Shown: piece after piece, positions 11,307 through 52,871 of the stretch
How positions within the stretch are numbered: the stretch's first letter is position 1
Layout: every line of letters starts with the position of its first letter
NCBI GenBank assembly: GCA_964578155.1
Contig: CAZOBQ010000002.1
Location: 1 to 52,871, forward strand
Length of the DNA: 52,871 nucleotides
Source of the DNA: an uncultured Lentisphaeria bacterium
GTDB taxonomy: Bacteria > Fidelibacterota > UBA8477 > JABMPR01
Reading direction: 5' to 3'
Notes under the pieces: generated by a model
What the model saw: the letters and a program-made list of their open reading frames with translations, nothing else
Told to the model about the DNA's origin: nothing
The model's database searches: none
Program-made: the position numbers and the translations under genes

Positions 11307-11331
11307 GAATTGGCTTTCAAAACATATCCCG

Positions 11332-11832: not shown

Positions 11833-11838
11833 AATAAG

Positions 11839-11864
11839 AAAGGGGCTCCGAAAGGAGTCCCTTT
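11839..11864 (+). terminator. Stem-loop (11-bp stem, GAAA loop) between the peptide gene and downstream genes; terminator or attenuator
   Basis: AAAGGGGCTCC-GAAA-GGAGTCCCTTT with one G-U pair. Only a short T run follows, so it may be a partial terminator. Confidence 0.5.
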
Positions 11865-11887
11865 AACACGGACAAGGAAAAAGAAAA

Positions 11888-13072
11888 ATGATAATACTTA
11901 AAAGCATAATGGTTAACATGGTTTGTATCGTGTTGGCTGTCGCTGCAACAAGAACAGTAAGGTTGGACAGTATTGTTTCAACTTCAGAAGCTAAGGGCTT
12001 GTGGCCATCATCATCAAACACGGGAAAATTGTTTTATAGCAAGATTGGCGTACTGCTCTTAAATAAACGGGTTGTATATTTTGACAAAGTAAACAATGAT
12101 GTTGTTACTGAATTTAGAGTCCTTCCCAATAAAAGGTATAGCATGATTCCAGTTTCGCTGGTTGCTAATTCTAGCACCTACGCCTGTGTATATAACAACC
12201 CTGCAAACGGAAGATATCGGATAGGTGTATTTGACAATAATGGAGGTAAACTTATAGTAAAGAGACCCCATCACACCGGACATGCGAGTTATAAAGTGTT
12301 TAGCCAACAAGAAGGAGAAACAATCTACCTGATTTCACCACACTTAAGTGGTTATGAAAAAGCTCTAGATCTTTATGATGAGAACTCAATGACGCCCTCC
12401 CAATATTCAAGGGATAAGTTTGATGCCTTTTTTAGGGAAAATAAGGCCTTCACAATTTGGAAGCATGATGAGAAGCTTGAACCCGTGGACTCGGCGGATG
12501 TAATTAACCGGGTAGGGGTAGACTTAGAGGAATACCTCAAACTATATGACAACCAGGCGGTTGATCAGGATAAAGACTCAAACATTCATTTGATCCATTC
12601 ATCAAAAAACTATCTGATCCGATCTTACTCACCATCCTTGCAGCTAGAAAAGGAATTTCGTTGCGAGAACAATGATTTTAAGCCCATTCCAAAAATGCTT
12701 GTTAAGGGGGACGCCAAAAAACTTAAGTCAAAACAAGGTAGTTACTCGATTTTTTATGCTTTATACTCAATCAATGACTGGCTGGTCACATCTTTTTACC
12801 AAAATCCAGAAGGCTGGGAAAGACCTGAAGGCCCCTACTATTATGATATCCATGCAAAGGATGGGCAGAAAAAGACATCAGGTCAATTACCCTACCCCTT
12901 CTTTGGCAGGGATGATGAAGGGAATATGTATCTCTATGTTATGAAAGAGAGTGATTCATGGCTGGGTGACGATGAATACTATCTTGTAGAGATAAGCATT
13001 GCTGAGTTGATCGCAGGAAAGGTAAACCAGTCCTTTGTTCTGAATAGGATCAAGCAAGATTCAAATGATTAA
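11888..13072 (+). CDS. Hypothetical exported protein (394 aa), beta-rich, possibly propeller-like
   Basis: N-terminal hydrophobic anchor or signal. Repeated short beta-strand-like hydrophobic/aromatic segments. No catalytic motif recognised. Confidence 0.55.
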   Translation: MIILKSIMVNMVCIVLAVAATRTVRLDSIVSTSEAKGLWPSSSNTGKLFYSKIGVLLLNKRVVYFDKVNNDVVTEFRVLPNKRYSMIPVSLVANSSTYACVYNNPANGRYRIGVFDNNGGKLIVKRPHHTGHASYKVFSQQEGETIYLISPHLSGYEKALDLYDENSMTPSQYSRDKFDAFFRENKAFTIWKHDEKLEPVDSADVINRVGVDLEEYLKLYDNQAVDQDKDSNIHLIHSSKNYLIRSYSPSLQLEKEFRCENNDFKPIPKMLVKGDAKKLKSKQGSYSIFYALYSINDWLVTSFYQNPEGWERPEGPYYYDIHAKDGQKKTSGQLPYPFFGRDDEGNMYLYVMKESDSWLGDDEYYLVEISIAELIAGKVNQSFVLNRIKQDSND

Positions 13073-13511
13073 TGAAAGGATACAGGTTTCAAAAACGGAT
13101 GCTATCCCGGCGCTGCGCTGGTTGGTCTCCATAGTATTCTTCTTTTTGGCCATGATCAAATCCCAGAGCATTATTAACGCTGGACTGGTTCCTTACCGGG
13201 AGTTCCTGCTGGTAATCGGTTGGCCTTTGGTATTACAGTATTATGGGGTAGTCGCCATGTTGGTAGAGTTTTATGCAGCGATATCGCTGTGGAGTGAACG
13301 GCTGTTTCTGAGTGGAATTGTCTTTATGTCTCTTTTGACAACCCTAGGGGTTACATTAAGTATTTACTCTTTAATCTTCAAACTCAATTCAGAATGCGGA
13401 TGTGGTCTATTGGGTCAAAATGAATACGGGCTTCTTATTCAAAAGTTTTTGATCCTTATTATACTATCTGTGCTTTACAGGAACAAATACCGGCTATTTC
13501 CTGAACAATAA
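13065..13511 (+). CDS. MauE/DoxX-like redox-associated membrane protein
   Basis: 148 aa, 4 predicted TM helices, SECGCGLLG motif resembling the CxC(F)G motif of MauE/DoxX-type proteins. 8-nt overlap with the upstream gene. Confidence 0.5.
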   Translation: MINERIQVSKTDAIPALRWLVSIVFFFLAMIKSQSIINAGLVPYREFLLVIGWPLVLQYYGVVAMLVEFYAAISLWSERLFLSGIVFMSLLTTLGVTLSIYSLIFKLNSECGCGLLGQNEYGLLIQKFLILIILSVLYRNKYRLFPEQ

Positions 13512-13877
13512 TTAAAAGCTAAGTTCTTGTCGCTTTTTTAAACTTAAAGTGCTGATTACTAAGCGATACGAATCCTCAATAAGTTTTTGTGTTAATCCCT
13601 TGTCAAGACTTTCGTCTAACAAAACTGTATTCCAGTGTTCCTTGTTCATGTGATACCCAGGAGTAATCGCTTCAAATTGAGAGCGCAATACTTGAGCATC
13701 ATCAGGGTCGCACTTTAGGTTCACCGCTAAGGGTTTTTTATCGGTACCCGAAAGGGCGAACATTTTTCCGCCGACCTTGAAAACGGCGGTTTTCTCATCA
13801 AAGGGAAACGTAAGAGATGACCCCTTAAAGGACAAAAGAAATTCTTTTAATTCAGCGTAATTAACAAGCCACCTCAA
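13512..13877 (-). CDS. MmcQ/YjbR-family protein
   Basis: FPFDEKTAVFKVGGKMFAL...LKCDPDDAQVLRSQFEAITPGYHMNKEHWNTV is typical of the YjbR family. Confidence 0.8.
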   Translation of the reverse strand: MRWLVNYAELKEFLLSFKGSSLTFPFDEKTAVFKVGGKMFALSGTDKKPLAVNLKCDPDDAQVLRSQFEAITPGYHMNKEHWNTVLLDESLDKGLTQKLIEDSYRLVISTLSLKKRQELSF

Positions 13878-14520
13878 GGACCTTAAAAAAATCTATGATC
13901 TTATCTTTTTGCAGCCCGTCATCAGTTCGTAAACCACTACACAAATCCACACCATCTGGACGAGTGGCAGCAAGTGCTGCTAAAATATTACCGGTATTTA
14001 AACCGCCAGCCAGAAAAACAGGTATGCTGCTTTTGTCACAGATCTCTCGACTTATTTCCCAGTCATGAACCTCACCGGTTCCACCCAATGTTTTGAGTGT
14101 TGAATTAGGGTTTCCTGAATCTAAGAGCAAAAAATCCACATACTGAGAATACTTCAAAGCAAGCTGAATGGAAGACGCGTCTTGAACATGAATCACCTGA
14201 AGAAGCTGAACATCAGGAAGTATTGCCCGAAGGTTTACTAGCTCACTAATATTTACATAGTCAACGATCTGAATACCCCAAGAATTAACTTGTGAATGTT
14301 GTGAATAGATTGACTGAGCGGTTTGAGCGCTGGTTAGCAAGACACTCTTGGTTTTAGGTGGGAGCTGTTTAATGATAGAAGCAATATCGTCTAATGGAAT
14401 GACCCCTGGACCGCTGGGCATTTCAGAAACAAACCCTAACATATCAGCCCCCGTTTCAAGGGCCAAAAGAGCCTCGGGCAGGCTCTTAATACAGCAGACT
14501 TTTATGGCGGGTTTAAACAT
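13861..14520 (-). CDS. trpF: Phosphoribosylanthranilate isomerase
   Basis: IKVCCIKS..ALETGADMLGFV, LLDSG....LGGTGEVHDW and PVFLAGGLN motifs. No other trp genes in the window. Confidence 0.8.
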   Translation of the reverse strand: MFKPAIKVCCIKSLPEALLALETGADMLGFVSEMPSGPGVIPLDDIASIIKQLPPKTKSVLLTSAQTAQSIYSQHSQVNSWGIQIVDYVNISELVNLRAILPDVQLLQVIHVQDASSIQLALKYSQYVDFLLLDSGNPNSTLKTLGGTGEVHDWEISREICDKSSIPVFLAGGLNTGNILAALAATRPDGVDLCSGLRTDDGLQKDKIIDFFKVLEVAC

Positions 14521-40818: not shown

Positions 40819-40914
40819 TCTTAGTTTATCCGCGAGATAAGCGGGCTGAAGACAAGTTAGAAAAACAGTCAGACAAAAACAGGTGTATTGGTTGTCCTGT
40901 GAGTGTCGACCATA

Positions 40915-42069
40915 ATGAGTCAAAACTTAAACTACCAGATTATCTCTAAGCCGGCAGGTCCTTCCTGTAACATGGACTGCACCTACTGCTTTTATTTGGA
41001 AAAAGAACAGCTCTTTGCTCCGTTACCAACACAAGACGTGCCTCTTCGAATCATGTCTGAGCCTATTCTGGAAACCTATATTCAAAAAAAGCTAAACACG
41101 GAAAGTTCGTCTGAACAAAGCTTTATCTGGCAGGGTGGTGAACCCACCTTATTAGGTTTGGAATATTTTGAAAAAGTCGTAGCACTTCAGCAAAAGCACG
41201 CGCGAGGAAAAGGGATTCAGAATGCCGTTCAAACCAATGGCGTGCTGTTGAATGATGAATGGTGTGAATTCTTTGCCAAACATAACTTTCTAGTGGGGAT
41301 CTCAATTGATGGTCCCCGAGAACTCAATGATAAATATCGTGTGAATAAAGCGGGGGATTCCACTTTTGATAAAGTCGTTGAAGGTGTGGCCTTACTAAAG
41401 AAACACCAGGTTGAGTTCAATACCCTTACCACGGTTCATAAAGGCAATGCTGACCATGCATTGGAGATTTACAGGTTTCTAAAGGAACTGGGTAGTCGGT
41501 TCATGCAGTTCATCCCAATTGTTGAGAAGAATAACGATATGTCGGTAGACTCAAAGCAATACGGGGATTTTCTTGTCGCCATTTTTGATGAATGGGTGAG
41601 TCAAAACGTGGGACATATCTTTGTTCAGAATTTCGATGTAGCTTTAGAAGCATGGTCTGGCTTACCGTCTAGCTTGTGCGTCTTTGCTGAAACCTGTGGA
41701 ACCGCTCCCGTACTTGAACACAATGGTGACATGTATGCCTGTGATCACTATGTTGAGCCAAAGTATAAGATTGGAAACATCCTAGATGATGAGTTGCCTA
41801 CAATCATGCAATCTCCGCAACAAGTCGCCTTTGGCCAGGACAAACTGGATCAGCTTCATCCCAAATGTATCCGCTGCGATTATCGTTTTGCCTGTCATGG
41901 TGGCTGTCCCAAAGATCGAATCCTGACAACAACTGAAAGTGATAATAAGCTCAACTATTTATGTGATGGGTATACCAGGTTTTTCGAACATATAGATCCA
42001 CAGATGAAGTTTATGGCAAATGAAATACGGCACAGACGTGCCCCGGCAAACGTCATGATAACACAATGA
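40915..42069 (+). CDS. Anaerobic sulfatase-maturating enzyme (radical SAM/SPASM)
   Basis: CNMDCTYC (CX3CX2C) near the N-terminus. C-terminal SPASM cysteines CIRCDYRFACHGGCPKDR. Confidence 0.9.
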   Translation: MSQNLNYQIISKPAGPSCNMDCTYCFYLEKEQLFAPLPTQDVPLRIMSEPILETYIQKKLNTESSSEQSFIWQGGEPTLLGLEYFEKVVALQQKHARGKGIQNAVQTNGVLLNDEWCEFFAKHNFLVGISIDGPRELNDKYRVNKAGDSTFDKVVEGVALLKKHQVEFNTLTTVHKGNADHALEIYRFLKELGSRFMQFIPIVEKNNDMSVDSKQYGDFLVAIFDEWVSQNVGHIFVQNFDVALEAWSGLPSSLCVFAETCGTAPVLEHNGDMYACDHYVEPKYKIGNILDDELPTIMQSPQQVAFGQDKLDQLHPKCIRCDYRFACHGGCPKDRILTTTESDNKLNYLCDGYTRFFEHIDPQMKFMANEIRHRRAPANVMITQ

Positions 42070-42076
42070 GGTAAAG

Positions 42077-43675
42077 ATGAAAACGACTCGTAGAGAATTT
42101 ATCAAAAGGGTTGGCATGGGAACTACAGCACTTGCTGTTCCCGGTTTAATGACCGTGGGCTGTATGAAAAAGACCAGGCCAAATATCGTATTCATCATGA
42201 GTGACGACCATGCCGAACAAGCCATCAGTTGTTATGGGAGTCAACTTATAAAGACGCCGGGAATTGATCGTATCGCCAAAGAAGGTATTCGCTTTGAGAA
42301 TAGCTTTGTTACCAACTCCATCTGCGCCCCCAGTCGCGCTACCATGTTGACCGGAAAATACAGTCATCTAAATGGACTACACGATCATAGGGATACTTTT
42401 GATGGAAGCCAGGTCACATTTCCAAAGTTGCTACAGGAGGCGGGCTATCATACATCCATAGTGGGGAAGTGGCATCTCAAATCAGAGCCCACCGGCTTTG
42501 ATTCCTGGAACATTCTGAAAGGCCAGGGTCAGTATTATAACCCAAGTTTTAACGACAACGGAAGCAATCGCGAGTATGTTGGCTATACTACAGACCTGGT
42601 CACAGACAGAGCCCTTGAAACCCTGGACTCAATGGATAAGTCAAAACCTTTTTGCATGCTCATCCACCACAAGGCGCCCCATCGAAACTGGATGCCCAAC
42701 CTGAAACATCTTGATGCTTTTAATGATGAAGAATTTTCTGTTCCAGAGACCTTCTTCGATGACTACTCCGGACGCAAGGCAGCTGCCGGAGCAGATATGC
42801 GCATCGATGATATGTATTTGTCTTTCGACCTCAAACTGCAGGAAGAATTTTACGGAACCGAAACAGGCTCTGGCGGGAAAGAGTCTTACGCAAAAAATGT
42901 GGGTGAAACCTGGAAGAACACCTACAACCGACTTACCAAAGAACAAAAAACAGTTTGGGATGCGCATTACAACAAGATCAACCAGGAGTTTAAGGCTTTA
43001 AAACTCACGGGAGATGAGCTGTTGGTGTGGAAATACCAACATTATCTCAAAGATTATCTCCGCTGTATTCTTTCATTAGATGAAAACGTCGGTCGAGTGC
43101 TTGACTACTTAGACGAACAGGGATTGACTGAAAACACCATCGTTGTGTATACTTCTGATCAGGGTTTTTATCTGGGTGAGCATGGTTGGTATGACAAGCG
43201 CTTCATGTATGAAGAGTCCCTGGGCATGCCTCTGGTCATGCGTTATCCACAAGAGATCCAGACAGGTCAAGTTTCTCAAGATATGGTGATGAATCTGGAT
43301 TTTGCATCCACCTTCCTTGACTATGCCGGAGTGACTATTCCCGATGATATGCAGGGATCATCTCTGCGCGCACTAGTGAAAGGACAAACTCCCCAGGACT
43401 GGAGACAGGCTGTCTATTATCACTATTACAACAATCCCAAAGGATGGCATAGTGTGGGTGGTCACTATGGTGTAAGAACTGAACGCTACAAGCTGATCCA
43501 TTTCTATATGGAGGATGACTGGGAGTTGTTTGACCTAGCCGAGGACCCCAGCGAAGTTAATAATGTTTATGCTGATCCAGCATATTCTGGAGTGCTGATT
43601 GATATGAAACAGAAATTATCTGAACTCCAGCAGGCTTACGGTGACACAGAGATTCCCGTAGAAAATGAGTATTAA
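42077..43675 (+). CDS. Cys-type sulfatase with twin-arginine signal peptide
   Basis: TRREFIK Tat motif. NIVFIMSDDH and SICAPSRATMLTGKY (CxPxR formylglycine motif). Confidence 0.92.
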   Translation: MKTTRREFIKRVGMGTTALAVPGLMTVGCMKKTRPNIVFIMSDDHAEQAISCYGSQLIKTPGIDRIAKEGIRFENSFVTNSICAPSRATMLTGKYSHLNGLHDHRDTFDGSQVTFPKLLQEAGYHTSIVGKWHLKSEPTGFDSWNILKGQGQYYNPSFNDNGSNREYVGYTTDLVTDRALETLDSMDKSKPFCMLIHHKAPHRNWMPNLKHLDAFNDEEFSVPETFFDDYSGRKAAAGADMRIDDMYLSFDLKLQEEFYGTETGSGGKESYAKNVGETWKNTYNRLTKEQKTVWDAHYNKINQEFKALKLTGDELLVWKYQHYLKDYLRCILSLDENVGRVLDYLDEQGLTENTIVVYTSDQGFYLGEHGWYDKRFMYEESLGMPLVMRYPQEIQTGQVSQDMVMNLDFASTFLDYAGVTIPDDMQGSSLRALVKGQTPQDWRQAVYYHYYNNPKGWHSVGGHYGVRTERYKLIHFYMEDDWELFDLAEDPSEVNNVYADPAYSGVLIDMKQKLSELQQAYGDTEIPVENEY

Positions 43676-44761
43676 ATGATGATGACAAAAAGAACACTCC
43701 AATTATCTATTCTCCTGGCAAGCCTCTTGTTTTTTCAGTCTTGTGCCCAGAGAACCATATGGTATAAAGGTAACACACATGCCCACACTGTGATTTGTGG
43801 TCATGCTGACTCTCCACCGGAAGTGGTGACTCAATGGTACCATGATCACGGCTATAATTTTCTTATTCTCAGCGAGCACAACCATTTCATTGATCCTGAT
43901 TCTGTAATAATGCCGGAAAACCTCAGGGATAACTTCATTCTCATTCCAGGCGAAGAGGTTTCTGGACCCAAGATCGTACACACAACCGCCATGAATATCC
44001 AAGGCTTGGTTTCACAGCGAAAGGATCTTGAAGTAAAAGCTGAAATTATTCAGGATCATGTGGACAGCACCTTGAGTAAAGGTGGACACACCATTCTAAA
44101 TCATCCCAATTATATCTATACCGTTTCAGCGGCTGACATTATGCCGGTCAATAATTTATATATGTTTGAACTCTATAATGGCCATCCCTTGGTCAACAAT
44201 GCGGGGGACTCGGTCCATGTCTCTACTGAGGTACTCTGGGATGAGTTGCTTACCGCCGGAATGACAATTTTTGGCGTTTCATCCGATGATGCTCATTATT
44301 TTGCAACTATGGACAGTCTGCATTCTAATCCCGGTCGGGGTTGGGTTATGGTCAATGCTCCAAAGCTTAGCGGAGATGCCATTACCGCCGCCATGAATCG
44401 AGGTGACTTCTATGCTAGCAATGGAGTGATCCTCAAGCAGTGTAGCGTTAGCAGGGGCGTTTACCGTGTGGAGGTTGACGAACGGGCCACCGAGGACGAG
44501 CTGACATCACCAGAATTGCGTGGTGAGCACATTGAAAAAGGAGATCTAGGATATTTGATCGAATTCATTGGCCCCGACAGTAAGATTTTGGCGAGCTCAA
44601 GATCTTCAATCGCCAGCTTTCCCCTTTCCAGTGCTTCACAATATGTACGGGCAAAGGTTAGTTTTCGCCGCAAGACTGAGGGCGTTGAATTGGAAGCATT
44701 TTATGCCTGGGGACAACCGACCTTCATGGATGAAAGAAGCTTGAGTGATAAATCTCAATAA
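43676..44761 (+). CDS. PHP-domain (CehA/McbA-like) metallohydrolase, exported or lipoprotein
   Basis: Signal peptide ending FFQSC. WYKGNTHAHTVICGHADS and LNHPNY metal-ligand-like motifs. Confidence 0.65.
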   Translation: MMMTKRTLQLSILLASLLFFQSCAQRTIWYKGNTHAHTVICGHADSPPEVVTQWYHDHGYNFLILSEHNHFIDPDSVIMPENLRDNFILIPGEEVSGPKIVHTTAMNIQGLVSQRKDLEVKAEIIQDHVDSTLSKGGHTILNHPNYIYTVSAADIMPVNNLYMFELYNGHPLVNNAGDSVHVSTEVLWDELLTAGMTIFGVSSDDAHYFATMDSLHSNPGRGWVMVNAPKLSGDAITAAMNRGDFYASNGVILKQCSVSRGVYRVEVDERATEDELTSPELRGEHIEKGDLGYLIEFIGPDSKILASSRSSIASFPLSSASQYVRAKVSFRRKTEGVELEAFYAWGQPTFMDERSLSDKSQ

Positions 44762-45398
44762 ACAGATTATTCTCTTCGGAATCACAGGCTTTCTGTCCAG
44801 CCTGCTCTCATTCACTCCTGGTGAGGGTCTTTCACTGACAGCAGAAGAGATGACGCAAGTTCAGCGGGGAGAAATAATACTTCGGGACCTCAGTACAGAA
44901 GACTCACCGGGACAGACTTTTGAGGCTATTGGTTTGATCAATACACCACGAGTTGAAGTAGTGCAGGTATTGATTGATTATGAGAAATACCCCGAGTTTA
45001 TGCCTAATGTGACTCATGTGGAGATCGTTGAGCAAACAGGTGACGAAGCAGTCTTGAATTATATTTTGAAGCTCCCCATGGGGATTGTCAAAAAGTATCG
45101 GATTCAAATAGCTCTGATGGAGAGAGACAGTTTAACCTCAATTATTGAATGGCAGTATCGTGATTGGCCTGGGTTAAAACAGAAAGAGACCATCAGGGAT
45201 ACCAAGGGCTTCTGGCAGATAGAGGAAGTATCACCTGAAACCTGTCTCGTATGGTATCAAGTCTATTCTGATCCAGGACCAGTTCCTTTTGGTTTTGGCT
45301 GGATCGTTAATTTTTTAACCCAAACCAGCTTTCCCGACGCATTTCAGCAGACCAAGCTTCGGGCAGAAGCCTTTGATTCCATAATAGACCCTAACTAA
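44745..45398 (+). CDS. SRPBCC (START/cyclase-dehydrase-like) protein with N-terminal signal or anchor
   Basis: VLIDYEKYPEFMPNV is typical of the polyketide_cyc2/SRPBCC fold. GTG start overlapping the upstream gene by 17 nt. Confidence 0.6.
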   Translation: MINLNKQIILFGITGFLSSLLSFTPGEGLSLTAEEMTQVQRGEIILRDLSTEDSPGQTFEAIGLINTPRVEVVQVLIDYEKYPEFMPNVTHVEIVEQTGDEAVLNYILKLPMGIVKKYRIQIALMERDSLTSIIEWQYRDWPGLKQKETIRDTKGFWQIEEVSPETCLVWYQVYSDPGPVPFGFGWIVNFLTQTSFPDAFQQTKLRAEAFDSIIDPN

Positions 45399-45431
45399 CT
45401 GCAGAGAAATCAAACTCGTCACACCAAGCTC

Positions 45432-45460
45432 GTCATCCTGAGCCCGTCGAAGGACGACGG
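45432..45460. repeat. GC-rich hairpin CGTCATCC-N13-GGACGACG downstream of the SRPBCC gene
   Basis: Read directly, one wobble position. The motif style (gtcatcctgag...cgaaggacg) resembles the core of the repeats at 51352 and 52161. Confidence 0.5.
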
Positions 45461-45558
45461 TTATAGCGACAAGCTTACTCCTTTACCCTAAACACCCCTT
45501 TTAAATGAAACCAATTGCTCCTAAGTTTGTCCCACAAAAAAACAGAAGCGTGGTATTG

Positions 45559-46791
45559 ATGATGAATTCAACAAATAAATTATCCCAAAAGCTAATTTAC
45601 CTTTTCCTGGCAGTGTTAATTGTCTCCACGCCGCTCCCAAGCAAAGCCTACACCACCGATCGCGTTGTCCTGGTCATTATTGACGGACTTCGCTACAGCG
45701 AAGGTCTTGGCGATCCAAACCACACCTATACACCACGTATGGCAGCACTTGCAAATCAAGGTGCTTTGGTCGACAACTTCCGTAATGATGGCGTGACCAA
45801 AACCTGGAGAGCAATTCCGGCTATCTGGTGTGGAGCCTGGACAGAAATTAACACCTTCTCAGATCCTTACTGTGGTGGATCAAACAACAATACCACAGAG
45901 CTGCCTACGGTGTTTGAATATTATAGGAAACAATTAAACAGACCGGCTGACGATTGCATTTACACGATAAAAAATCTGTGCTCCTGGAAAGCCAGTCATG
46001 ATGTGGACTATGGACCGGATTACTGGCCACTGTATCACGAAGCGGGCACTACAGATACTGATGTGTGGCAGGAGACGGAGCAGGTTATAGCCACTCAGTC
46101 ACCTCGCTTATTGTTGATGTATCTGGCTGATGTGGATCATGCGGGGCATGTCGGTGATTGGAACGATTATCTCAAGTCTATTGTCACTGCTGACAGTCTA
46201 GTCGGTAGACTTTGGGAGGTGCTCCAGGCTGATACGGCCTATGCCGGAAAAACGACTCTATTGGTTACCAATGATCATGGTCGTCATGATTGGGATTTTA
46301 CCGGTCACGGGGATGGTTGTGAAGGCTGCCGCCATATCCAACTGCTGGCAGTTGGGCCAGATGTGCGGACTGGGCTTAGATCTGATGTAACTCGCACCAT
46401 ACCGGATATTGCTCCCACCATTGGTGAGTTGCTGGGCTTCACCACAGAGAAAGCCACCGGGACAGCCATGACAGAGCTATTTACCGATGTGGTTCATATT
46501 GACAGGTCTCAGCGTCCTGAAATCCAAGCTCTTAAGGTTTTTCCAAATCCCAGCAATCAGGGTACAACCATAGAAATATCCTTGCCAATTGAATCAGAAA
46601 TTGAGCTACAGGTTTACGACCTAAAAGGACGGCTGGTCACCACCATAAATAGATATCTTGGAGCTGGCCTTAATCAGATCAGTTGGAATGGAACAGATAA
46701 TCATGGCAGGGAAATATCATCGGGGACCTACCTGATACGATTGCAGGCTGATAATGATGTGTCTCTTGGAAAAATTGTTCTTATAAAATAA
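45559..46791 (+). CDS. Alkaline-phosphatase-superfamily (phosphodiesterase/phosphatase-like) protein with T9SS C-terminal sorting domain
   Basis: VVLVIIDGLRY, DVDHAGH and VTNDHGRHD metal-site motifs. C-terminal KVFPNPSNQGTTIEISL...VYDLKGRLV...GTYLIRL. Start at 45505 or 45559. Confidence 0.75.
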   Translation: MMNSTNKLSQKLIYLFLAVLIVSTPLPSKAYTTDRVVLVIIDGLRYSEGLGDPNHTYTPRMAALANQGALVDNFRNDGVTKTWRAIPAIWCGAWTEINTFSDPYCGGSNNNTTELPTVFEYYRKQLNRPADDCIYTIKNLCSWKASHDVDYGPDYWPLYHEAGTTDTDVWQETEQVIATQSPRLLLMYLADVDHAGHVGDWNDYLKSIVTADSLVGRLWEVLQADTAYAGKTTLLVTNDHGRHDWDFTGHGDGCEGCRHIQLLAVGPDVRTGLRSDVTRTIPDIAPTIGELLGFTTEKATGTAMTELFTDVVHIDRSQRPEIQALKVFPNPSNQGTTIEISLPIESEIELQVYDLKGRLVTTINRYLGAGLNQISWNGTDNHGREISSGTYLIRLQADNDVSLGKIVLIK

Positions 46792-46850: not shown

Positions 46851-46950
46851 AAAAAACCATGATATAACTACATTTAGATGATTAATTAAAAAAATATAGG
46901 TTTTAAGACTAAGAGAAAGTTAATGACTATTTGTCGCAAGGGGCTTGGGA

Positions 46951-48837
46951 ATGAAAATTAAAAGTGTTCGAATCCAAAACTACAAAAGCATTAAAGACGT
47001 TACCATCCCTTTTTCAGCGTACGGCCAACGGACAAACAAGAGTAGTGCGGCTTTTTTGGTGGGTATCAACGAGGGTGGAAAAACAGCTCTGCTTGAGGCC
47101 TTGAGCTTTCTAAAGAAAGGGTTGTCAGGTGTAGATTACGAGGAAGCCTGTAATAAGGAAGCGCTAGAGAACGAGGAGTACATAGACATTTATGTCACCT
47201 TAGCGATAGGGAGTCAATCTTTTTGGACGGAGAGGCTTACAAAAGACTGTGGAATTCCGGTAGAATTAAGCAAAAAGATTAAATTCAAAAAGCTGGAAAA
47301 GAATTTGTATCTAGACACTGAGGGCTCCAGTTTTCACTATACAATAGAAATTGAAAACATTCCCTTATATGAATATGTTGTTGAAAGTTCCCTCAGCGGT
47401 GTTGGTCTCGTTGGTCAAATAAAGTCACTAAAAGAACAAAACAGTGTAAGTGAGAAAATAACTCAGAGCAACGCAGCTGGGTTCCTCACAGGCAATCAAA
47501 AAACACTGGAAATGAGCGATATTGAAGAGATGATCCCCTTGGTGTTACAGCCTATTTTTGAGAGGAGCTTCCCAAGCATTCAAATTTGGCGTCCAGAAAA
47601 AAAATATTTAATCAGCACAACAATTGATCTTGCAAAATTTAAAGAAGACCCGAACATCTCATTGCCATTAAAAAATATCTTTCACATATATGGAAAGACA
47701 GACAATAAAAACATAAAGGCTACAATTGAGCGCGCGCTTAAGAAGCAGGAATATTGTGACGAGCTAAAGGACAAGCTATCAATTTCGGTGACAAAACATT
47801 TAAACGAGATTTGGAAAGAGCATAAAATTAAAATAGTGGTCTCTATCAACGGAAACAATTGCCACGTTTTTGTCGAGGATAACGATAAAAAGCATAGTTA
47901 TTATAAAATGAGCCAAAGGAGTGATGGGTTTAAGCAGTTTGTTTCATTAATTTTGTCATTATCCGCATTAAATGTAAGTGAAAAATTAAAAAACAATATT
48001 ATTCTTATCGATGAGCCCGAGGTCCATTTGCATCCAAGTGGAGTCCGATACATGAGAGACGAGATATTGAAAATTGGAAAAAACAATCAAGTCTTTGCTT
48101 CAACACACAGTCATTACTTGGTAGACACAACCTCTCCAGAACGACATTGGATAGTAAAAAAAGAAAAATCTGAAACAACAATAAGTCAGATCGGCGAGGA
48201 CACACCAATTGAGGACGACAAGGTGTTAATGTCTGCTTTTGGTCTAAATGTATTTATTGAGCTATTGCCCAAAAATATAGTTGTAGTTGAGGGGGGTGAT
48301 GACAAGTTGACATTACTTCATTCAATTGATAAGATAAGGTCACGATTCTTTTATTCTATAAAATCAGCAGGAGGGGCTTCTAAGGTTCCAGGAATAGCAT
48401 CCATACTGGGTGATGAAAGCGTTCCGGCATATGTTCTGTTTGATGATGATAAAGAGGGTCGCGACAACAAGAAAAAAATTCTAGAGAATCTAAAGAACTC
48501 ATTCTCAAAGGAAAACGTATTCACAATAAGAGATATAGAATCTTCACTACCTATTTATTCTACTCTAGAAGACCTCATGCCCGTTGATTTTGTTAAAGAG
48601 CATTTTGACAGTAAACTGAATGGCAATTTCAACATTGACCCAACCAAGGCAATCGTTTTGCAACTTAAGCGCCAAAATATAGAGCTTAAAGACAAACAGA
48701 AGATGGCATCAATCAAGCTAAGTCTGGCAAAAAAATTCATTGCCCAGTTTAACACTAAGCAAAAAATAGAGTCGCAATCACCAAGAATGGCGGCCCTTGT
48801 AAGCGCCCTGGTTTCAAAAATTGAGAGTAAAGAATAA
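46951..48837 (+). CDS. OLD-family ATP-dependent nuclease (ABC-type ATPase fused to a TOPRIM domain), stand-alone
   Basis: MKIKSVRIQNYKSI start. Walker A GINEGGKT, signature-like QRSDGFKQ, Walker B IILIDEPEVHLHPS, H-loop ASTHS. C-terminal VVVEGGDDK...VLFDDDKEGRD (TOPRIM Glu and DxD). Confidence 0.8.
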   Translation: MKIKSVRIQNYKSIKDVTIPFSAYGQRTNKSSAAFLVGINEGGKTALLEALSFLKKGLSGVDYEEACNKEALENEEYIDIYVTLAIGSQSFWTERLTKDCGIPVELSKKIKFKKLEKNLYLDTEGSSFHYTIEIENIPLYEYVVESSLSGVGLVGQIKSLKEQNSVSEKITQSNAAGFLTGNQKTLEMSDIEEMIPLVLQPIFERSFPSIQIWRPEKKYLISTTIDLAKFKEDPNISLPLKNIFHIYGKTDNKNIKATIERALKKQEYCDELKDKLSISVTKHLNEIWKEHKIKIVVSINGNNCHVFVEDNDKKHSYYKMSQRSDGFKQFVSLILSLSALNVSEKLKNNIILIDEPEVHLHPSGVRYMRDEILKIGKNNQVFASTHSHYLVDTTSPERHWIVKKEKSETTISQIGEDTPIEDDKVLMSAFGLNVFIELLPKNIVVVEGGDDKLTLLHSIDKIRSRFFYSIKSAGGASKVPGIASILGDESVPAYVLFDDDKEGRDNKKKILENLKNSFSKENVFTIRDIESSLPIYSTLEDLMPVDFVKEHFDSKLNGNFNIDPTKAIVLQLKRQNIELKDKQKMASIKLSLAKKFIAQFNTKQKIESQSPRMAALVSALVSKIESKE

Positions 48838-48887
48838 CAGGATCAGGGCTAAACTTCTTCTGTTGATGCCAAAAGCCATGATTTTAC

Positions 48888-48916
48888 TTGACAGAAGGTT
48901 TCTAGCACTCTAACTT
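48888..48916 (+). promoter_or_regulatory. Candidate sigma-70 promoter for the SorC regulator / BMC operon
   Basis: TTGACA (48888-48893), 17 nt, TAACTT (48911-48916). Confidence 0.35.
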
Positions 48917-48950
48917 GAACACATGTTAAGATACAATGAACACATGTTCA
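48916..48950 (+). promoter_or_regulatory. Two direct copies of a palindromic operator-like site
   Basis: TGAACAcaTGTTAA (48916-48929) and TGAACAcaTGTTCA (48937-48950), starts 21 bp apart. They overlap or follow the putative -10, 17 nt before the sorC-family ATG. Confidence 0.5.
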
Positions 48951-48966
48951 GTAGAATTCAGGCAAT

Positions 48967-49920
48967 ATGATCTCAGAGCATCAAGATCGTGGCTTGTTGG
49001 TATTAGAGGCAGCCCGCTTCTACTATGAACACCACCTTACCCAATCCCAGATTGCATCTAAGTTGGAGGTCTCACGACCCACTGTCTCACGACTTCTGCA
49101 AGAAGCTCGAGATCAGGGTGTGGTTCGGATCCAGATCATCGACCCCAGTGCCAGCGGAACCCGGCTGGAAAAGAGGCTCAGAGACCAATTTGGTCTCAAG
49201 CATGTGGTTGTGGTACCTTATGATGGTGAACCTGGCCAAGTGTTAAAATCCCGCATGGGCTATGCCTTAATCGACTTATTAGACACATTGATAGATGACA
49301 ATTCAACCCTGGGCGTTTCCTGGGGAACCACTATGCAAGCCGCGACAAAACATTTAAGATCACGGCCGGTCAAGAACATGACCGTGGTTCAACTTAATGG
49401 TGGTGTATCAAAAGCAGAACTGGATACCCACGCCAGTGAGATCGCCGGAAAAATGGGCGAGAATTATCACGCCACACCATACTTACTACCACTACCGGCC
49501 ATCGTAGATAACCCAGAATTAAAAACAGCCATCATTTCAGATCGACATATTGCAAAAACATTAAAGCTGGCCAGAGAAGCGGATATCGCAGCCTTTACCG
49601 TAGGCGCCTTCGGGTCAAACTGTGTTCTGGTCAAAGCTGATTATTTTGAAAGCGATGAAGTCCAAGACCTTATCGACCAAGGCGCTGTGGCAGATATCTG
49701 CTCACGCCTCATCAAGGCAGATGGATCCATCTGCTCACTAGCCCTGGACCAAAGAACCATTGGTATCGAGCTGGAAGAACTCAAAGCCAAGCCCTATTCA
49801 ATCGCTGTAGCTGGTGGTCCTGACAAAGAACAGGCCGTCAAAGCCGGACTCACAGGAAAATGGTTTAACAGTCTGATCACAGATGAACAAACCGCCCGTA
49901 AATTACTGGGGGAAGCATAA
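48967..49920 (+). CDS. SorC/DeoR(Bsu)-family sugar-binding transcriptional regulator
   Basis: [51 protein letters not shown] plus a C-terminal sugar-phosphate-binding domain. Confidence 0.88.
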
Positions 49921-49921
49921 G

Positions 49922-51343
49922 ATGAGTACAAAACCAATTATCGCCCTGGGCGCAGACCACGGCGGTTATCCTCTCAAAGAAGAGATCAAAACCTTTCTGA
50001 AAAAAGAGGGTTATGAAACCATCGATTGTGGTACCCACTCAACAGACGCAGTCGACTACCCCGTCTTTGCTGCAAAAGTCGCCCATAAAGTGGCCGATGG
50101 CAAAGCTCGCTTTGGTGTTATTGTTGATGGAGCCGGTATCGGATCCTCCATGGCAGCCAATAAGATTCCCGGTGTAAGAGCCGCTCTCTGTTATGATCTC
50201 TCCAGTGCCAACAACGCCCGTGAACACAATGATGCCAACGTTCTGACTCTTGGGTCAGGCTTAATTGGCAAGGCTTTGGCCACTCAGATCGTGAAAAAAT
50301 TTATTACAACAGACTGTACTGAAGACAGACATTTAAAACGCGTTGGCATGATCGATGATCTGCAAACCGAAAAAGGAAATACGGAAACAATGGAAACGAC
50401 AACAAAAACAGATGACCAGAGCCTGGCATCATTATCTGACCAGGATATTCTGAAAATTGCAGAACGTGTAGGTCAGTTGGTTCAGGCTGGATCTGGAACA
50501 GCAGGTGAAGAGCCATGTAATGAGAAGAACCATGATCATCAGGATAGCGATATGGTTTGTCATTGTGGGGTCTGCGCTGAACGGCAACCTGACACCTACC
50601 GCAAATTTATGGATTTTGGTGTGGATCGTATTGGTGTCCATGATGGTACCAGTGCCGCATCTGTCCCCGAAGATATCGCCAGATGTATCGATCACACAGT
50701 TTTAAAACCGGATGCTACAGTTGACGATATTAAAACTCTTTGTGCAGAAGCTGATGAGTTTCAATTTGCCACAGTTTGTATCAGTCCCAGTTATGTTCCA
50801 TTGGCAGCCAAAGAACTGGAGAACTCAAAAGTTAAAGTTTGTACCGTAGTAGGTTTTCCATCAGGAGCTCACCATCCAACCATCAAAGCCATGGAGACTC
50901 GTAGAGCCATTCGCGATGGTGCCAAGGAAATTGATATGGTTATCAATGTTGGAGCCTTAAAGAGTGGCGACGATGAGTTGGTTTATCGTGACATCCGTAT
51001 GGTTTGTGAGGCTTGCGAAGATGGTGGAGCCATCTCTAAGGTCATCATTGAAGCAGCACTCTTAACGGATGATGAGAAAGTCCGCGCCTGTACATTAGCT
51101 AAAAAGGCTCGAGCAGATTTTGTTAAAACGTCTACAGGATTTGGACCTCATGGAGCAACTGCTGCTGACGTAGCTTTAATGTCAAAGACAGTTGCTAATA
51201 CAGGAATTGGTGTGAAGGCAGCCGGTGGTATTAAATCACTGGAAGATGCTCAGAGTATGATCAAAGCTGGAGCCACCAGAATTGGTGCCAGCGCCGGAAT
51301 TGCAATATTGAAAAAAGCCAGATCGATCACGGTCTCAAGCTAA
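49922..51343 (+). CDS. Fusion protein: RpiB/LacAB-family sugar-phosphate isomerase + ~100-aa linker + deoxyribose-phosphate aldolase (DeoC)
   Basis: N-terminal: [16 protein letters not shown]...[18 protein letters not shown]...EHNDANVL (RpiB). C-terminal: [12 protein letters not shown]...VCISPSYV...[11 protein letters not shown]...EIDMVIN...FVKTSTGF (DeoC with the Schiff-base Lys). Confidence 0.88.
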
Positions 51344-51351
51344 AAGCAATT

Positions 51352-51509
51352 GAGCCACGGATTAACACAGATGAAAAGAGTTTTAATATACAGAACCACC
51401 ATTGCGTCTTTGCGAGAAGCGAAGAGACGAAGCAATCTCAGACACGAGATCGCCGCGCTCATTTCTTTCGCTCGCGAAGACGAGACAATGATAGACTGTG
51501 GATAAAAGA
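51352..51509. repeat. Structured intergenic repeat element, copy 1 (~158 bp)
   Basis: Shares its left end (GCCACGGATtAAcACA), core (CGTCTTTGCGAGaAGCGAAGaGACGAAGCAATCTCAGAcaCGAGATCGCCGcGCTC ... CTCGCGAAGACG) and right end (cTGTGGaTAAAAgA) with copy 2. Internal 12-bp inverted repeat 51405-51416 / 51471-51482. Confidence 0.8.
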
Positions 51510-51520
51510 GGAAATAACCA

Positions 51521-52153
51521 ATGAGTGTAGATTTAAGATCATATGTGTTTTTAGATAATTTGCAGCCACAGCATGCGGCTTTCTTTTGTACGATTGCCAG
51601 GGGTTTTCTACCTCTCGCTGGAATGGCTTCTTTGTATGTTGAGATATCTCCTGGAATCGAGATCAACCGCATAACGGATATCGCATTGAAATCAACCAAT
51701 GTCACACCGGGTTTACAGATCGTTGAACGTCTCTACGGACTTTTGGAGATCCATTCCTTTTCCCAGGCTGATGTTCGTCAGGCCGGTGCAGCTATTCTGG
51801 AGGCCCTTGACTTAAAAGAGGAAGATCGTCAGAAACCCAAGGTGGTTTCCAGTCAGGTCATCCGAAATATTGACGATCATCAGACCCAGTTGATCAATCG
51901 TATGCGTCATGGCAACATGATCATTCCCGGTGAGTCCATGTATGTCATGGAATGTGTACCGGCAGCCTATGCGGCCCTGGCAGCTAATGAAGCCGAGAAA
52001 GCTGCAAATATTAATATCCTGGAGGTTCGTGCTACCGGAAGTTTCGGTCGCGTATACCTCGGTGGTGATGAAAAGGATATTGATGTGGCCTGGAAAGCAG
52101 CGACGACAGCCATTGAAAATGTTGAAGGCCGTGTACAGCCGGATAAGAAATAA
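51521..52153 (+). CDS. Tandem BMC-domain shell protein (BMC-T-like, probably permuted EutL/PduB-type)
   Basis: Two ~105-aa halves, each with a BMC-like core ([25 protein letters not shown]...; [48 protein letters not shown]). AGAGGA RBS. Confidence 0.72.
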
Positions 52154-52160
52154 GTGTAAT

Positions 52161-52360
52161 TAGCCACGGATGAAACACATAGTTGACATAAAGAATCACC
52201 ATGTCACGTCTTTGCGAGGAGCGAAGGGACGAAGCAATCTCAGATTCGAGATCGCCGTGCTCTTTAGCCTGCACTGAGCGCAGTCGAAGTGCTCGCGAAG
52301 ACGCTTCAGTGAACATCCGTGTTTCATTTCGACGTTGCTCAATACAGGCATCCGTGGCTA
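52161..52360. repeat. Structured intergenic repeat element, copy 2 (~200 bp) with perfect 12-bp terminal inverted repeats
   Basis: TAGCCACGGATG (52161-52172) and CATCCGTGGCTA (52349-52360). Same core as copy 1 (52207-52218 / 52292-52303), plus extra internal segments. Confidence 0.8.
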
Positions 52361-52423
52361 AAACAAGAAAATGAATAATGAATAAAAATAAACCCAAAGC
52401 AATAACAAACAGGAGGCAATAAA

Positions 52424-52735
52424 ATGTCTGAAGCTCTAGGAATGTTAGAAACCAGAGGATATCCAGCAGCAGTAGAAGCAGCGGATGCAATGGTAAAAGC
52501 TGCCAAGGTAGAATTGGTAGAGTATGAAAAAACAGGTGGTGGCTATGTAACAGTCGTTATCCGTGGTGATGTAGCAGCTGTTAAAGCCGCTTGTGACGCC
52601 GGTCGTGCCGGTGCGTCAAAAGTTGGTGAGATCGTAGCTGTTCATATCATTGCTCGTCCCCATCCAAATGTGGATTCTGTTTTACCCTTAGGTCGTGGTA
52701 AAGAAGGTAAAGCCGAACTTGCCAAAAGAGCCTAA
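52424..52735 (+). CDS. BMC-H hexameric shell protein (PduA/EutM-like)
   Basis: [53 protein letters not shown]...VHIIARPH. Strong AGGAGG RBS. Confidence 0.93.
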
Positions 52736-52750
52736 GCGAGAGGTGACCCT

Positions 52751-52871
52751 ATGATCCTGGCAAAAGTTGTTGGGACTCTTGTTGCCAGCCAGAAAGAGTC
52801 CAGTATGGACGGTCTCAAATTTCTGACTTTGCAGCAGGTCGATCTGGAAGGAAAAGCCAAAGGTGGGTTTG
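52751..52871 (+). CDS. BMC-P pentameric vertex protein (EutN/CcmL/PduN family), 3' end outside window
   Basis: MILAKVVGTLVASQKESSMDGLKFLTLQQVD is a typical EutN-family N-terminus. Confidence 0.85.
   Translation, partial: MILAKVVGTLVASQKESSMDGLKFLTLQQVDLEGKAKGGF

Follow-up and report, generated by a model that had tools for sequence, protein, structure and literature searches.

What kind of compartment is encoded where the window (the whole 52,871-nt stretch of marine Marinimicrobia, or Neomarinimicrobiota, DNA that we analyzed) breaks off within a run of microcompartment genes, and on which substrate might it act? We consider it likely that positions 48888–52871 hold the 5′ part of a nine-gene sugar-phosphate-utilization (SPU) metabolosome operon of the SPU3 kind, and we propose that the operon encodes a compartment that degrades deoxyribose-5-phosphate (dR5P). 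To judge from the sequences, the substrate would most likely be deoxyribose phosphate from DNA. The find is correct but ordinary; this type of locus, including its fused enzyme, was already described in the same phylum in 2014.

Behind a putative promoter/operator region, this end of the window encodes a DeoR-like regulator of the SorC family, a fusion of RpiB with DeoC (RPI-DERA), a double-stacking BMC-T of the CcmP type, a BMC-H, and the 40 initial codons of a BMC-P. The five genes, all named in the initial annotation, proved real: each lies on the + strand in its expected place and scored above threshold in a Pfam profile search. Their description as co-directional with short gaps was right for the strand and for two of the gaps, which measure, in gene order, 1, 177, 270, and 15 nt; the 177- and 270-nt gaps are not short and hold a repeated hairpin element. 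A 506-kb public contig, L001, has the same sequence as the window across an 11,351-nt overlap and carries the remainder of the operon; the window does end within the locus. On L001 the BMC-P is complete (99 aa, 11231–11530; PF03319 E = 1.4e-27) and is followed, downstream of the window, by an acylating aldehyde dehydrogenase (AldDH; 484 aa, 11666–13120), a PduT-like BMC-T (13120–13725), and a second and third BMC-P (13725–14003 and 14224–14499), after which unrelated genes begin. An aldehyde-processing core had been predicted downstream, and the AldDH bears this out, but the phosphotransacylase (PduL/PTAC) and alcohol dehydrogenase that were expected with it are absent from the operon and the next 6.1 kb of L001, as is PduS.

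Domain or family matches were obtained for all nine operon genes, with PF00936 in three and PF03319 in three others, all above gathering scores; the shell-like ORFs of the initial annotation pass these thresholds. The locus combines a DERA signature (pfam01791), an RpiB-type domain (pfam02502) with the DERA, a BMC-P triplet, and an AldDH, the last of which is required in the curated SPU set of Dwyer et al. The N-terminal extension, or encapsulation peptide (EP), of SPU DERAs has its counterpart in a conserved helix between the RpiB and DERA domains, whose role in encapsulation is putative. An RPI-DERA fusion is a trait of SPU3, and SPU traits include a CcmP-like Tdp, a BMC-P triplet, and no PTAC where the Tdp is present (PMC11585597). 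The SPU class had thus been called correctly, and the RPI-DERA chimera, CcmP-like BMC-Tdp, and missing PTAC place the locus in SPU3 by the criteria of that study, in an assignment based on gene content rather than on its authors' HMM clustering of shell proteins and loci (BMC Caller). Gene order is the same in relatives whose fusion proteins are 81% and 68% identical.

Upstream of the regulator gene, a −35-like hexamer, TTGACA, can be read at 48888–48893 (+ strand); it precedes operator site 1 in nine of nine Marinimicrobia loci, in flanking sequence that varies. The best −10 candidate, TAACTT (48911–48916), is weak, which is why a sigma-70 scan listed no full promoter, and we therefore treat the promoter as a prediction. 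Paired DeoR-type operator sites occupy 48915–48951 (+ strand), as TTGAACACATGTTAAG (48915–48930) and ATGAACACATGTTCAG (48936–48951), 21 nt apart from start to start. Only three matches to TTGAACANNTGTTCAA at two or fewer mismatches occur in the 52.9 kb, two of them being this pair, and both the pair and its 21-nt spacing are kept upstream of the regulator in all nine Marinimicrobia loci. These sites share with the Bacillus subtilis DeoR operator, ATTGAACAAAATTTCAAT (PMC11229326), both the TTGAACA half-site and a TTGAA-N6-TTCAA layout. The predicted sites have the form of a DeoR-type operator, with TTGAACA-type palindromes as two half-operators overlapping the promoter.

The regulator itself (317 aa, 48967–49920, + strand) has an N-terminal HTH and a sugar-binding domain (PF04198 Sugar-bind, E = 4.6e-71), and among solved structures it matches B. 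subtilis DeoR best (PDB 8r7y, E = 6.6e-69). Its score against the NCBIfam DeoR model NF053881, 340.5 bits, falls short of the equivalog cut-off (420), and we therefore name it DeoR-like rather than DeoR. The DNA-contacting Arg34 and Arg39 of DeoR align with R37 and R42, and the position of DeoR Lys141 is taken by Asn144, with Asn also in relatives L002 and L004. Lys141 is reportedly, from work by Skerlova and colleagues in 2014, the effector lysine that binds dR5P as a Schiff base. Covalent binding of dR5P by DeoR is documented (PMC11229326). With Asn at this position, the effector of the DeoR-like regulator may therefore differ from dR5P.

The fusion protein (473 aa, 49922–51343, + strand; PF02502 E = 7.1e-52, PF01791 E = 1.7e-22) has its true start at 49922, 1 nt past the regulator stop, and consists of an RpiB-like domain (about residues 7–148), an EP-like helix (173–189), and a DERA domain (about 250–465). 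Both domains are confident in an AlphaFold2 model, in which the helix has a pLDDT of about 60. The protein exceeds the cut-offs of both TIGR00126 deoC (278.7 bits against 117.3) and TIGR01120 rpiB (157.6 against 138.65). Residues were compared with what we take to be the Escherichia coli DERA and RpiB sequences, of which the DERA numbering agreed with published residues. The DERA triad D102/K167/K201 is intact as D338/K402/K432 and invariant in 12 homologues. In the RpiB half, D9, H10, H99, N100, R133, H134, and R137 are kept, T68 is replaced by A71, and the catalytic base, Cys66, is replaced by Asp69, for which reason we call the domain RpiB-like. The same substitutions recur in DERA-adjacent RpiB homologues: of 67 such proteins, from many phyla, 65 have Asp at the Cys66 position (63 of these with Ala at T68). 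The other active-site and phosphate-binding residues are mostly kept in them, and three positions vary slightly. No part for the domain in cleaving dR5P is evident, and little or no ribose-5-phosphate isomerase activity was seen in its SPU6 homologue (PMC11585597). It is probably not a standard ribose-5-phosphate isomerase; it may support DERA as a partner or scaffold, or it may be a sugar-phosphate enzyme of altered function.

The BMC-Tdp (210 aa, 51521–52153, + strand; PF00936 30.7 bits, cut-off 24.5) matches the beta-carboxysome CcmP structures 5lsr and 4ht5 over its full length (E ~5e-84, residues 1–208), passes the NCBIfam CcmP model (345 bits, cut-off 340), and carries the precomputed Pfam architecture CsoS1D_N + BMC. 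It has the same length as CcmP and keeps, as E69-R70, the Glu69-Arg70 that we take to be the pore-gating residues. The proteins scanned across 62 kb include no RuBisCO, CcmK/L/M/N, or carbonic anhydrase, and given the catabolic metabolosome context we regard the protein as CcmP-like rather than as a carboxysome component. The BMC-H hexamer protein (103 aa, 52424–52735, + strand; PF00936 E = 2e-29) is followed by the partial BMC-P, a pentameric vertex protein (52751–52871, + strand; PF03319 35.7 bits, cut-off 25, E = 1.3e-8). The three BMC-P proteins of the operon (99, 92, and 91 aa) are 32–36% identical in the two pairs aligned by BLAST. By its NF011927 score (629.5 bits, cut-off 403), the AldDH is a member of the EutE/PduP-like subfamily of acylating enzymes. 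Its N-terminus and the conserved linker helix of the fusion, LSDxDIxxIAERVGxL, have in common the EP-like motif L(S/T)DxxhxxIAxRV, which is conserved across phyla.

We propose that the DeoR-like repressor would bind the two palindromes over its own promoter and be released when a sugar phosphate, most likely dR5P, builds up. The shell proteins, recognized by homology, would assemble from one BMC-H, the gated CcmP-like BMC-Tdp, the PduT-like BMC-Ts, and three BMC-P, and the similar amphipathic helices would recruit the fusion and the AldDH to the interior. The enzyme chemistry is predicted from catalytic residues, with support from an SPU6 DERA that is active in vitro, and the RpiB-like domain would take one of the two roles named above. 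Since PTAC, alcohol dehydrogenase, and PduS are not encoded, acetyl-CoA/CoA and NADH/NAD+ must pass through the shell, for which the wide pore of the BMC-Tdp is the probable route, as suggested after Dwyer et al. Nucleoside phosphorylase, phosphopentomutase, and deoxyribokinase genes were not found in the 62 kb available for the genome. Relative L004 encodes three more enzymes beside the operon, namely a pyrimidine-nucleoside phosphorylase (TIGR02644, 572 bits), a mutase of the PGM/PMM family, and a class II aldolase. This arrangement recalls B. subtilis, in which DeoR controls the dra-nupC-pdp operon (PMC11229326).

That the compartment really acts on a sugar phosphate other than dR5P, with the Asp-for-Cys site of the RpiB-like domain performing a new first step (isomerization or ring opening) whose product passes to the aldolase domain, we regard as unlikely. 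Such a step would explain both the fusion and a regulator with Asn in place of the lysine said to bind dR5P, and the recurrence of Asp and Ala in an otherwise mostly conserved RpiB site suggests that the site is not decaying but has been selected to bind a ligand. RPI and DERA are fused or adjacent in these loci and can form a stable complex, and Dwyer et al. left the processing of rare sugar phosphates open (PMC11585597). The DERA domain, however, clears the deoC equivalog cut-off by a wide margin and keeps its full triad. For dR5P itself, aldose-ketose isomerization is impossible, because it has no 2-hydroxyl. Moreover, the SPU6 DERA is active, its complex with RPI added neither substrate specificity nor efficiency, and SPU5 loci lack RPI (PMC11585597). 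Reversed operation appears quite improbable: the compartment would be a redox or aldehyde sink in which the AldDH reduces acetyl-CoA to acetaldehyde, using NADH, and DERA with the RpiB-like domain condenses this with glyceraldehyde-3-phosphate into stored sugar phosphates. The DERA and acylating AldDH reactions are both reversible, and a locus with neither PTAC nor alcohol dehydrogenase does not encode the cofactor cycle usual in catabolism. The isolate names of the closest named relatives begin with 'SI', presumably for Saanich Inlet, a low-oxygen basin in which a fermentative redox sink could help. Nobu et al. 2016 proposed this direction for the compartment of Atribacteria (summarized in PMC6281690). 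Against it stand a regulator and operator of the DeoR type, known from the control of genes for deoxynucleoside catabolism, and the pyrimidine-nucleoside phosphorylase clustered with the operon in one relative. No storage role is known for dR5P. The catalytic activity of the SPU6 DERA in vitro also speaks against reversal (PMC11585597).

The intergenic gaps raise the further prospect that repeat insertions have uncoupled shell and enzyme genes and left the operon decaying or inactive, which we judge extremely improbable. REP-like hairpins occupy three gaps, and a second small repeat brings the occupied gaps to four. Copy A (51406–51484, + strand; repeat family D1, nhmmer E = 2e-26; fold −36.5 kcal/mol, z = −3.6) lies between the fusion and BMC-T genes and appears to be absent from relatives L002–L003, whose corresponding gap is 67 nt, too short for the element; L004 has an inserted gene there instead. 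Copy B (52208–52303, + strand), with TTAGCCACGGATG-type inverted ends, lies in the 270-nt gap (52154–52423) and folds at −39.9 kcal/mol with a z of only −1.1, and copy C spans about 14083–14161 of L001. All nine ORFs are nevertheless intact with catalytic residues retained, and an identical copy of an operon protein occurs on at least 22 contigs from many samples. The regulator, fusion, Tdp, H, and P genes, on both sides of the elements, are covered by contigs from four seawater metatranscriptomes, which may include contaminating DNA; almost all of these contigs are ≥99% identical. One contig (52005–52410) runs through copy B, so that this element appears to be co-transcribed. Contig depth, a poor measure of expression, was highest at BMC-H in the four metatranscriptomes.

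As a putative dR5P-degrading compartment, the locus can be compared with the closest known systems. Its regulator resembles B. subtilis DeoR (8r7y, 4oqp; PMC11229326) in full-length identity (39%), in the recognition-helix arginines R34/R39, in the TTGAACA half-sites of two units about 21 bp apart that overlap the promoter, and in having DERA as a regulated enzyme; it differs in the Asn at the Lys141 position, a score below the equivalog cut-off, co-transcription with its targets, and the inclusion of a microcompartment shell among them. The view in the initial annotation that no SPU member had been characterized experimentally is out of date, as SPU6 DERA and RPI have been expressed and assayed and their complex demonstrated (Dwyer et al. 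2024, PMC11585597). This was the only SPU system with biochemical data that we found; the phrase 'in vivo' does not occur in that paper, and we found no report of an SPU compartment of any type studied in cells. Like the SPU6 locus of Chloroflexi bacterium GWB2_54_36, ours has a DERA N-terminal extension, the D/K/K triad, an RPI without the catalytic Cys, and physical association of DERA and RPI, here through fusion. In SPU6 the two proteins are separate, with an N-terminal EP on RPI itself, the AldDH carries its EP at the C-terminus, and a GntR-like regulator is present, whereas here the proteins are fused around an internal EP-like helix, the EP of the AldDH lies at the N-terminus, and the regulator belongs to the DeoR/SorC type. 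Compared with SPU3 (Sutter et al. 2021, PMC8217296; PMC11585597) and the Marinimicrobia locus of Axen et al. 2014 (PMC4207490), which has a fused aldolase-isomerase and no PduL, the present locus stands apart in having no PduS homologue, a protein frequent in all SPU subtypes except SPU6 (PMC11585597), and in the REP-like hairpins in three intergenic gaps of this strain. It is like them in its fusion, its acylating AldDH with an N-terminal EP, its CcmP-like BMC-Tdp together with a BMC-Ts, its BMC-P triplet, its lack of PduL/PTAC, and its phylum, Marinimicrobia.

The five genes named in the initial annotation are all present on the forward strand and co-directional, as established by ORF listing and Pfam scans. 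They encode a SorC-family regulator (48967–49920; PF04198, E = 4.6e-71), a 473-aa RpiB–DeoC fusion (start 49922; PF02502, 7.1e-52; PF01791, 1.7e-22), a 210-aa shell protein (51521–52153), a BMC-H protein (52424–52735; PF00936, 2e-29), and the first 40 codons of a BMC-P protein of the EutN/CcmL type (from 52751; PF03319, 35.7 bits; cut-off 25). The fusion start, taken from gene calls on public contigs, is one base past the regulator stop codon. The gaps had been described as short, which holds for those of 1 and 15 nt but not for those of 177 and 270 nt. The 210-aa protein matched the CcmP structures 5lsr and 4ht5 end to end (E ~5e-84) and is therefore a tandem-domain, double-stacking BMC-T (BMC-Tdp).

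Exactly this BMC-T protein is encoded on many public contigs, including a 506-kb ENA contig (L001) that is identical to the window at 11,351 of 11,351 overlapping bases and can therefore stand in for the missing downstream sequence. Downstream of BMC-P, L001 carries a 484-aa aldehyde dehydrogenase (AldDH) of the acylating EutE/PduP-like subfamily (NF011927, 629 bits; cut-off 403), followed by a 201-aa PduT-like BMC-T (BMC-Ts) and two further BMC-P genes; past the operon end lie a GIY-YIG gene on the opposite strand, a tRNA/rRNA methyltransferase gene, and other unrelated genes. The expectation of a downstream AldDH, phosphotransacylase (PTAC), and alcohol dehydrogenase was thus borne out for AldDH but not for the other two enzymes, as neither PduL/PTAC nor alcohol dehydrogenase, nor PduS, was found in the operon or the following 6.1 kb of L001. 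Searches with the shell proteins (tblastn) revealed no additional shell genes in the remaining 49 kb of the window, where Pfam scans of the larger ORFs gave housekeeping and cell-envelope genes only.

BMC-Tdp passes the NCBI equivalog cut-off for 'beta-carboxysome protein CcmP' (345.1 versus 340 bits), and automatic annotation is likely to mislabel it as that carboxysome protein; the 62 kb of sequence from this strain yielded no carboxysome genes. We do not claim a PduT-type Fe-S ligand in BMC-Ts, where the position of PduT Cys38 is His in a by-eye reading. In an alignment with CcmP, BMC-Tdp has the Glu-Arg pair of positions 69–70, the pore-gating residues of CcmP. With PTAC, alcohol dehydrogenase, and PduS all missing from the neighbourhood, exchange of CoA and NAD+ must take place across the shell, and it would do so through the wide BMC-Tdp pore, the route suggested by Dwyer et al. 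(PMC11585597).

The closest solved relative of the regulator is the Bacillus subtilis deoxyribonucleoside regulator DeoR (8r7y; E = 6.6e-69, 39% identity). At 340.5 bits, the NCBIfam DeoR match of the regulator falls short of the equivalog cut-off of 420. DeoR contacts DNA through R34 and R39, which are kept here as R37 and R42. Upstream of the regulator gene, TTGACA (48888–48893) is followed by two palindromes, TTGAACACATGTTAAG (48915–48930) and ATGAACACATGTTCAG (48936–48951), which are two of the three matches to TTGAACANNTGTTCAA at no more than two mismatches in the window. The palindrome pair is found upstream of the regulator at a constant 21-nt spacing, between diverged flanks, in 9/9 Marinimicrobia loci, and TTGACA is visible upstream of the first palindrome in all nine; a scan for sigma-70 promoters and terminators returned no more sites than in shuffled sequence. 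The B. subtilis DeoR operator, ATTGAACAAAATTTCAAT with a second unit ~21 bp off and base-specific contacts to TTGAACA (PMC11229326), shares the TTGAA-N6-TTCAA layout of the window sites. We infer that a DeoR-like repressor controls its own operon through predicted sites overlapping the promoter, a candidate promoter/operator and repressor pair that is concrete and can be tested in vitro. At the position of DeoR Lys141, reportedly the attachment point of deoxyribose-5-phosphate (dR5P), the regulator has Asn144, and two relatives also have Asn (alignment, with numbering checked by R34/R39). DeoR binds dR5P covalently (PMC11229326); given the Asn, the effector of the regulator may be bound differently or may be a different molecule.

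In the DERA domain of the fusion, the E. coli DeoC residues D102, K167, and K201 correspond to D338, K402, and K432, which are unchanged in all of 12 aligned homologues. Alignment of the RpiB-like domain with E. coli RpiB showed that the catalytic Cys66 is replaced by Asp69 and Thr68 by Ala71, and that D9, H10, H99, N100, R133, H134, and R137 are kept. We surveyed this site in 84 loci, comprising 80 from a fusion-alignment search of GTDB species genomes together with L001 and three loci of relatives carrying the same operon type (L002–L004). Asp occupied the Cys66 position in 65 of the 67 RpiB homologues adjoining or fused to DERA, 63 of these 65 had Ala at the Thr68 position, and the Asp-for-Cys pattern was the same with or without shell genes visible in the fetched stretch. 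Elsewhere the site was mostly kept, with minor variation at the N100, R133, and H134 positions, and the ring-opening and phosphate-binding residues were mostly retained across phyla.

The Asp-for-Cys replacement agrees with the loss of the active-site cysteine that Dwyer et al. noted in the RPI of SPU6, a subtype of the sugar-phosphate-utilising (SPU) microcompartments. The initial annotation held that no member of this class had been characterized, which is outdated: SPU6 DERA and RPI have been purified and assayed, the DERA being active and the RPI isomerizing R5P little or not at all, and a complex of the two was demonstrated (Dwyer et al. 2024, PMC11585597). The uniformity of the replacement looks more like changed function than decay, and the RpiB-like module could open the furanose ring or present it to DERA, or its substrate could be a pentose phosphate different from ribose-5-phosphate. 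We nonetheless regard as improbable the reading that the SPU module is a re-tooled sugar-phosphate enzyme and not a dead scaffold; if it were, the Marinimicrobia compartment, whose DeoR-like regulator lacks the lysine reported to bind dR5P, would have a physiological substrate and inducer that are not simply dR5P. Seventeen DERA-adjacent RpiB-like genes with Asp for Cys have no shell genes in the fetched stretch; they belong mostly to Acidobacteriota and Chloroflexota (including loci L025, L031, L037, L039, L047, L048, L055, and L056), and in L047 the two domains are fused. These pairs may serve microcompartments encoded at other genomic sites, or a shell may not be needed for the pair to work.

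Between its two domains, the fusion has a helix motif, LSDxDIxxIAERVGxL, that is conserved in the 12-homologue alignment. AlphaFold2, run with the 12-sequence alignment, modeled a helix at residues 173–189 (pLDDT about 60) between confident RpiB-like and DERA domains, with a mean pLDDT of 65 for the whole fusion. At its N-terminus AldDH has a similar motif, LTDSQVDLIANRVAALI, and then a variable linker, which by sequence is the usual architecture of an encapsulation peptide, and the pattern is repeated at the AldDH N-termini of related loci from several phyla. The motif agrees with the encapsulation-peptide role that Dwyer et al. (PMC11585597) suggested for the chimera's internal helix. The N-terminal extension of the DERA domain also includes a Cys-rich stretch, DMVCHCGVC (window 50540–50690; fusion residues about 207–256), to which many homologues add a GCxC at a later position. 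We considered CHCGVC as a metal site, but only C213 is invariant and C215 nearly so, whereas C218 and the GCxC of other homologues vary; a metal or redox site here is possible but not supported.

Three imperfect hairpins of ~80 nt, all in + orientation, lie in the operon gaps: copy A between the fusion gene and BMC-Tdp (window 51406–51484), copy B between BMC-Tdp and BMC-H (window 52208–52303), and copy C between the second and third BMC-P genes (L001 14083–14161). They share the REP-like layout GTCTTTGCGAGRAGCG...GACGAAGCAATCTC-loop-GAGATCGCCG...CTCGCGAAGAC and have folding energies of −32 to −40 kcal/mol, although relative to shuffled sequence only copies A (z −3.6) and C (z −2.3) are clearly more stable, copy B having z −1.1. 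There is no fourth copy in the 62 kb, and an Rfam scan of the operon assigned no family to the intergenic elements, giving only a chance mir-486 match (E 0.56). A conserved regulatory RNA of SPU operons was rejected as an explanation because L002–L004 appear, from gap sizes and gene calls, to be without the hairpin: the gaps of L002 and L003 are too short for it, and the first gap of L004 holds an inserted gene instead. The same reading is also countered by a pattern scan that located the hairpin core in other intergenic places of JGI marine metagenome contigs, sometimes in tandem clusters, on contigs with no other similarity to the operon region. In our reading, the hairpin is a dispersed REP- or MITE-like element specific to the lineage, which settled in the operon and does not belong to the SPU system. 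A single metatranscriptome contig (52005–52410) runs across copy B, so this hairpin appears to be transcribed with the operon, and an effect on the relative stability of mRNA segments is speculation.

Hairpin copies B and C, in the gaps at window 52154–52423 and L001 14004–14223, carry an extra 48-nt module, CATCCGTGTTTCATTTCGACGTTGCTCAATACAGGCATCCGTGGCTAA, in opposite orientations, with ends of the TTAGCCACGGATG type that resemble terminal inverted repeats such as bound small, non-autonomous mobile elements. A second short repeat occurs just past the window as CTTCGACGGGCTCAGCAAGACG and its near reverse complement CGTCATCCTGAGCCCGTCGAAG (L001 11560–11581 and 14531–14552), one in the BMC-P/AldDH gap and the other after the last BMC-P, beside the opposite-strand gene for the 97-aa GIY-YIG nuclease. 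In L004, the gene between the fusion gene and BMC-Tdp (9492–9866) encodes a four-helix-bundle 23S_rRNA_IVP protein where the window has copy A, which suggests that this gap tolerates insertions. Immediately upstream of the operon is a lone gene for a 630-aa OLD-family ABC-ATPase/Toprim nuclease (46945–48837) with AAA_15, AAA_21, and OLD-like Toprim matches in Pfam and AriA, GajA, and Old matches in PADLOC; it is missing at the same position in L002–L004 and may be a single-gene defence element. Between a Golvesin_C-domain gene and the operon, a block at 40903–46791 encodes a radical-SAM/SPASM maturase, a sulfatase, a CehA/McbA-type metallohydrolase with a signal peptide, an SRPBCC protein, and an NPP-type phosphodiesterase with a T9SS sorting tail; L002 is without this block. 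Neither the GIY-YIG protein nor the CehA-like hydrolase had a PADLOC match.

Homologues of the fusion at 64–87% identity are numerous and, where the source is named, come from Candidatus Marinimicrobia or Neomarinimicrobiota. The order of the nine genes is identical in relatives with 81% and 68% identical fusion proteins, and many seawater metagenome runs contain the window stretch. The 62 kb of this strain contain no nucleoside-catabolic gene. The operon of L004, the 68%-identity relative, is flanked by genes for a PGM/PMM-family mutase, a class II aldolase, and a pyrimidine-nucleoside phosphorylase (TIGR02644, 572 bits). The mutase matches the archaeal-type GlmM model, and the PGM/PMM family includes an archaeal phosphopentomutase. 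In other phyla, four further loci with DERA also have a nucleoside phosphorylase gene nearby, and shell genes are present in three of the four. These neighbours support catabolism of deoxynucleosides and dR5P as the function, in line with the published proposal and with the (deoxy)pentose-phosphate or nucleoside catabolism suggested by the initial annotation. The compartment could also work in reverse as a sink for NADH and aldehyde, a mode proposed for Atribacteria by Nobu et al., as relayed in PMC6281690, and our analyses are compatible with that direction; both the DeoR-type control and the phosphorylase neighbours favour the catabolic one.

The fusion gene was present in ten metatranscriptome runs, and Logan contigs from four of these were mapped onto window 46900–52871, which holds the window part of the operon only. 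The contigs cover the regulator, fusion, BMC-Tdp, BMC-H, and BMC-P genes, nearly all at an identity of at least 99%, with depth peaking over BMC-H, although contig depth is a poor measure of expression and metatranscriptome contigs may include contaminating DNA. We take this as an indication, not proof, that the operon is transcribed in situ in seawater. SPU loci probably allow bacteria to use deoxyribose from environmental DNA without leakage of acetaldehyde. Because the operon appears to be transcribed in seawater, in abundant uncultured marine Marinimicrobia, it bears on how dissolved DNA is turned over in the ocean.

The SPU class was named by Axen et al. 2014 (PMC4207490), partly on Marinimicrobia single-cell genomes, whose locus they described with a fused aldolase-isomerase and without PduL. 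It was enlarged by Sutter et al. 2021 (PMC8217296) to seven subtypes with >280 loci in 26 phyla, which makes SPU one of the most widely distributed types of microcompartment locus. Dwyer, Sutter and Kerfeld 2024 (PMC11585597) reported the RPI-DERA chimera in 20 SPU3 loci, BMC-Tdp proteins resembling CcmP in SPU2 and SPU3, and a BMC-P triplet in all SPU loci; they also reported that loci lacking PTAC typically have a BMC-Tdp. The window locus fits SPU3 by every sequence feature that could be tested, and the earlier assignment to the SPU class was therefore right. The find correctly identifies a system that was already known, in the phylum from which it was first reported, and, because this locus type was described for Marinimicrobia in 2014, adds little as discovery. 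Useful by-products are the operator/repressor pair, the near-universal Asp-for-Cys signature, and the warning about CcmP misannotation of BMC-Tdp. Modestly new relative to the known systems are the DeoR-type operator pair, conserved alongside a regulator that lacks the reported effector lysine, the near-universal Asp-for-Cys replacement in the RpiB-like partner, the common encapsulation-peptide-like motif, and the REP insertions.
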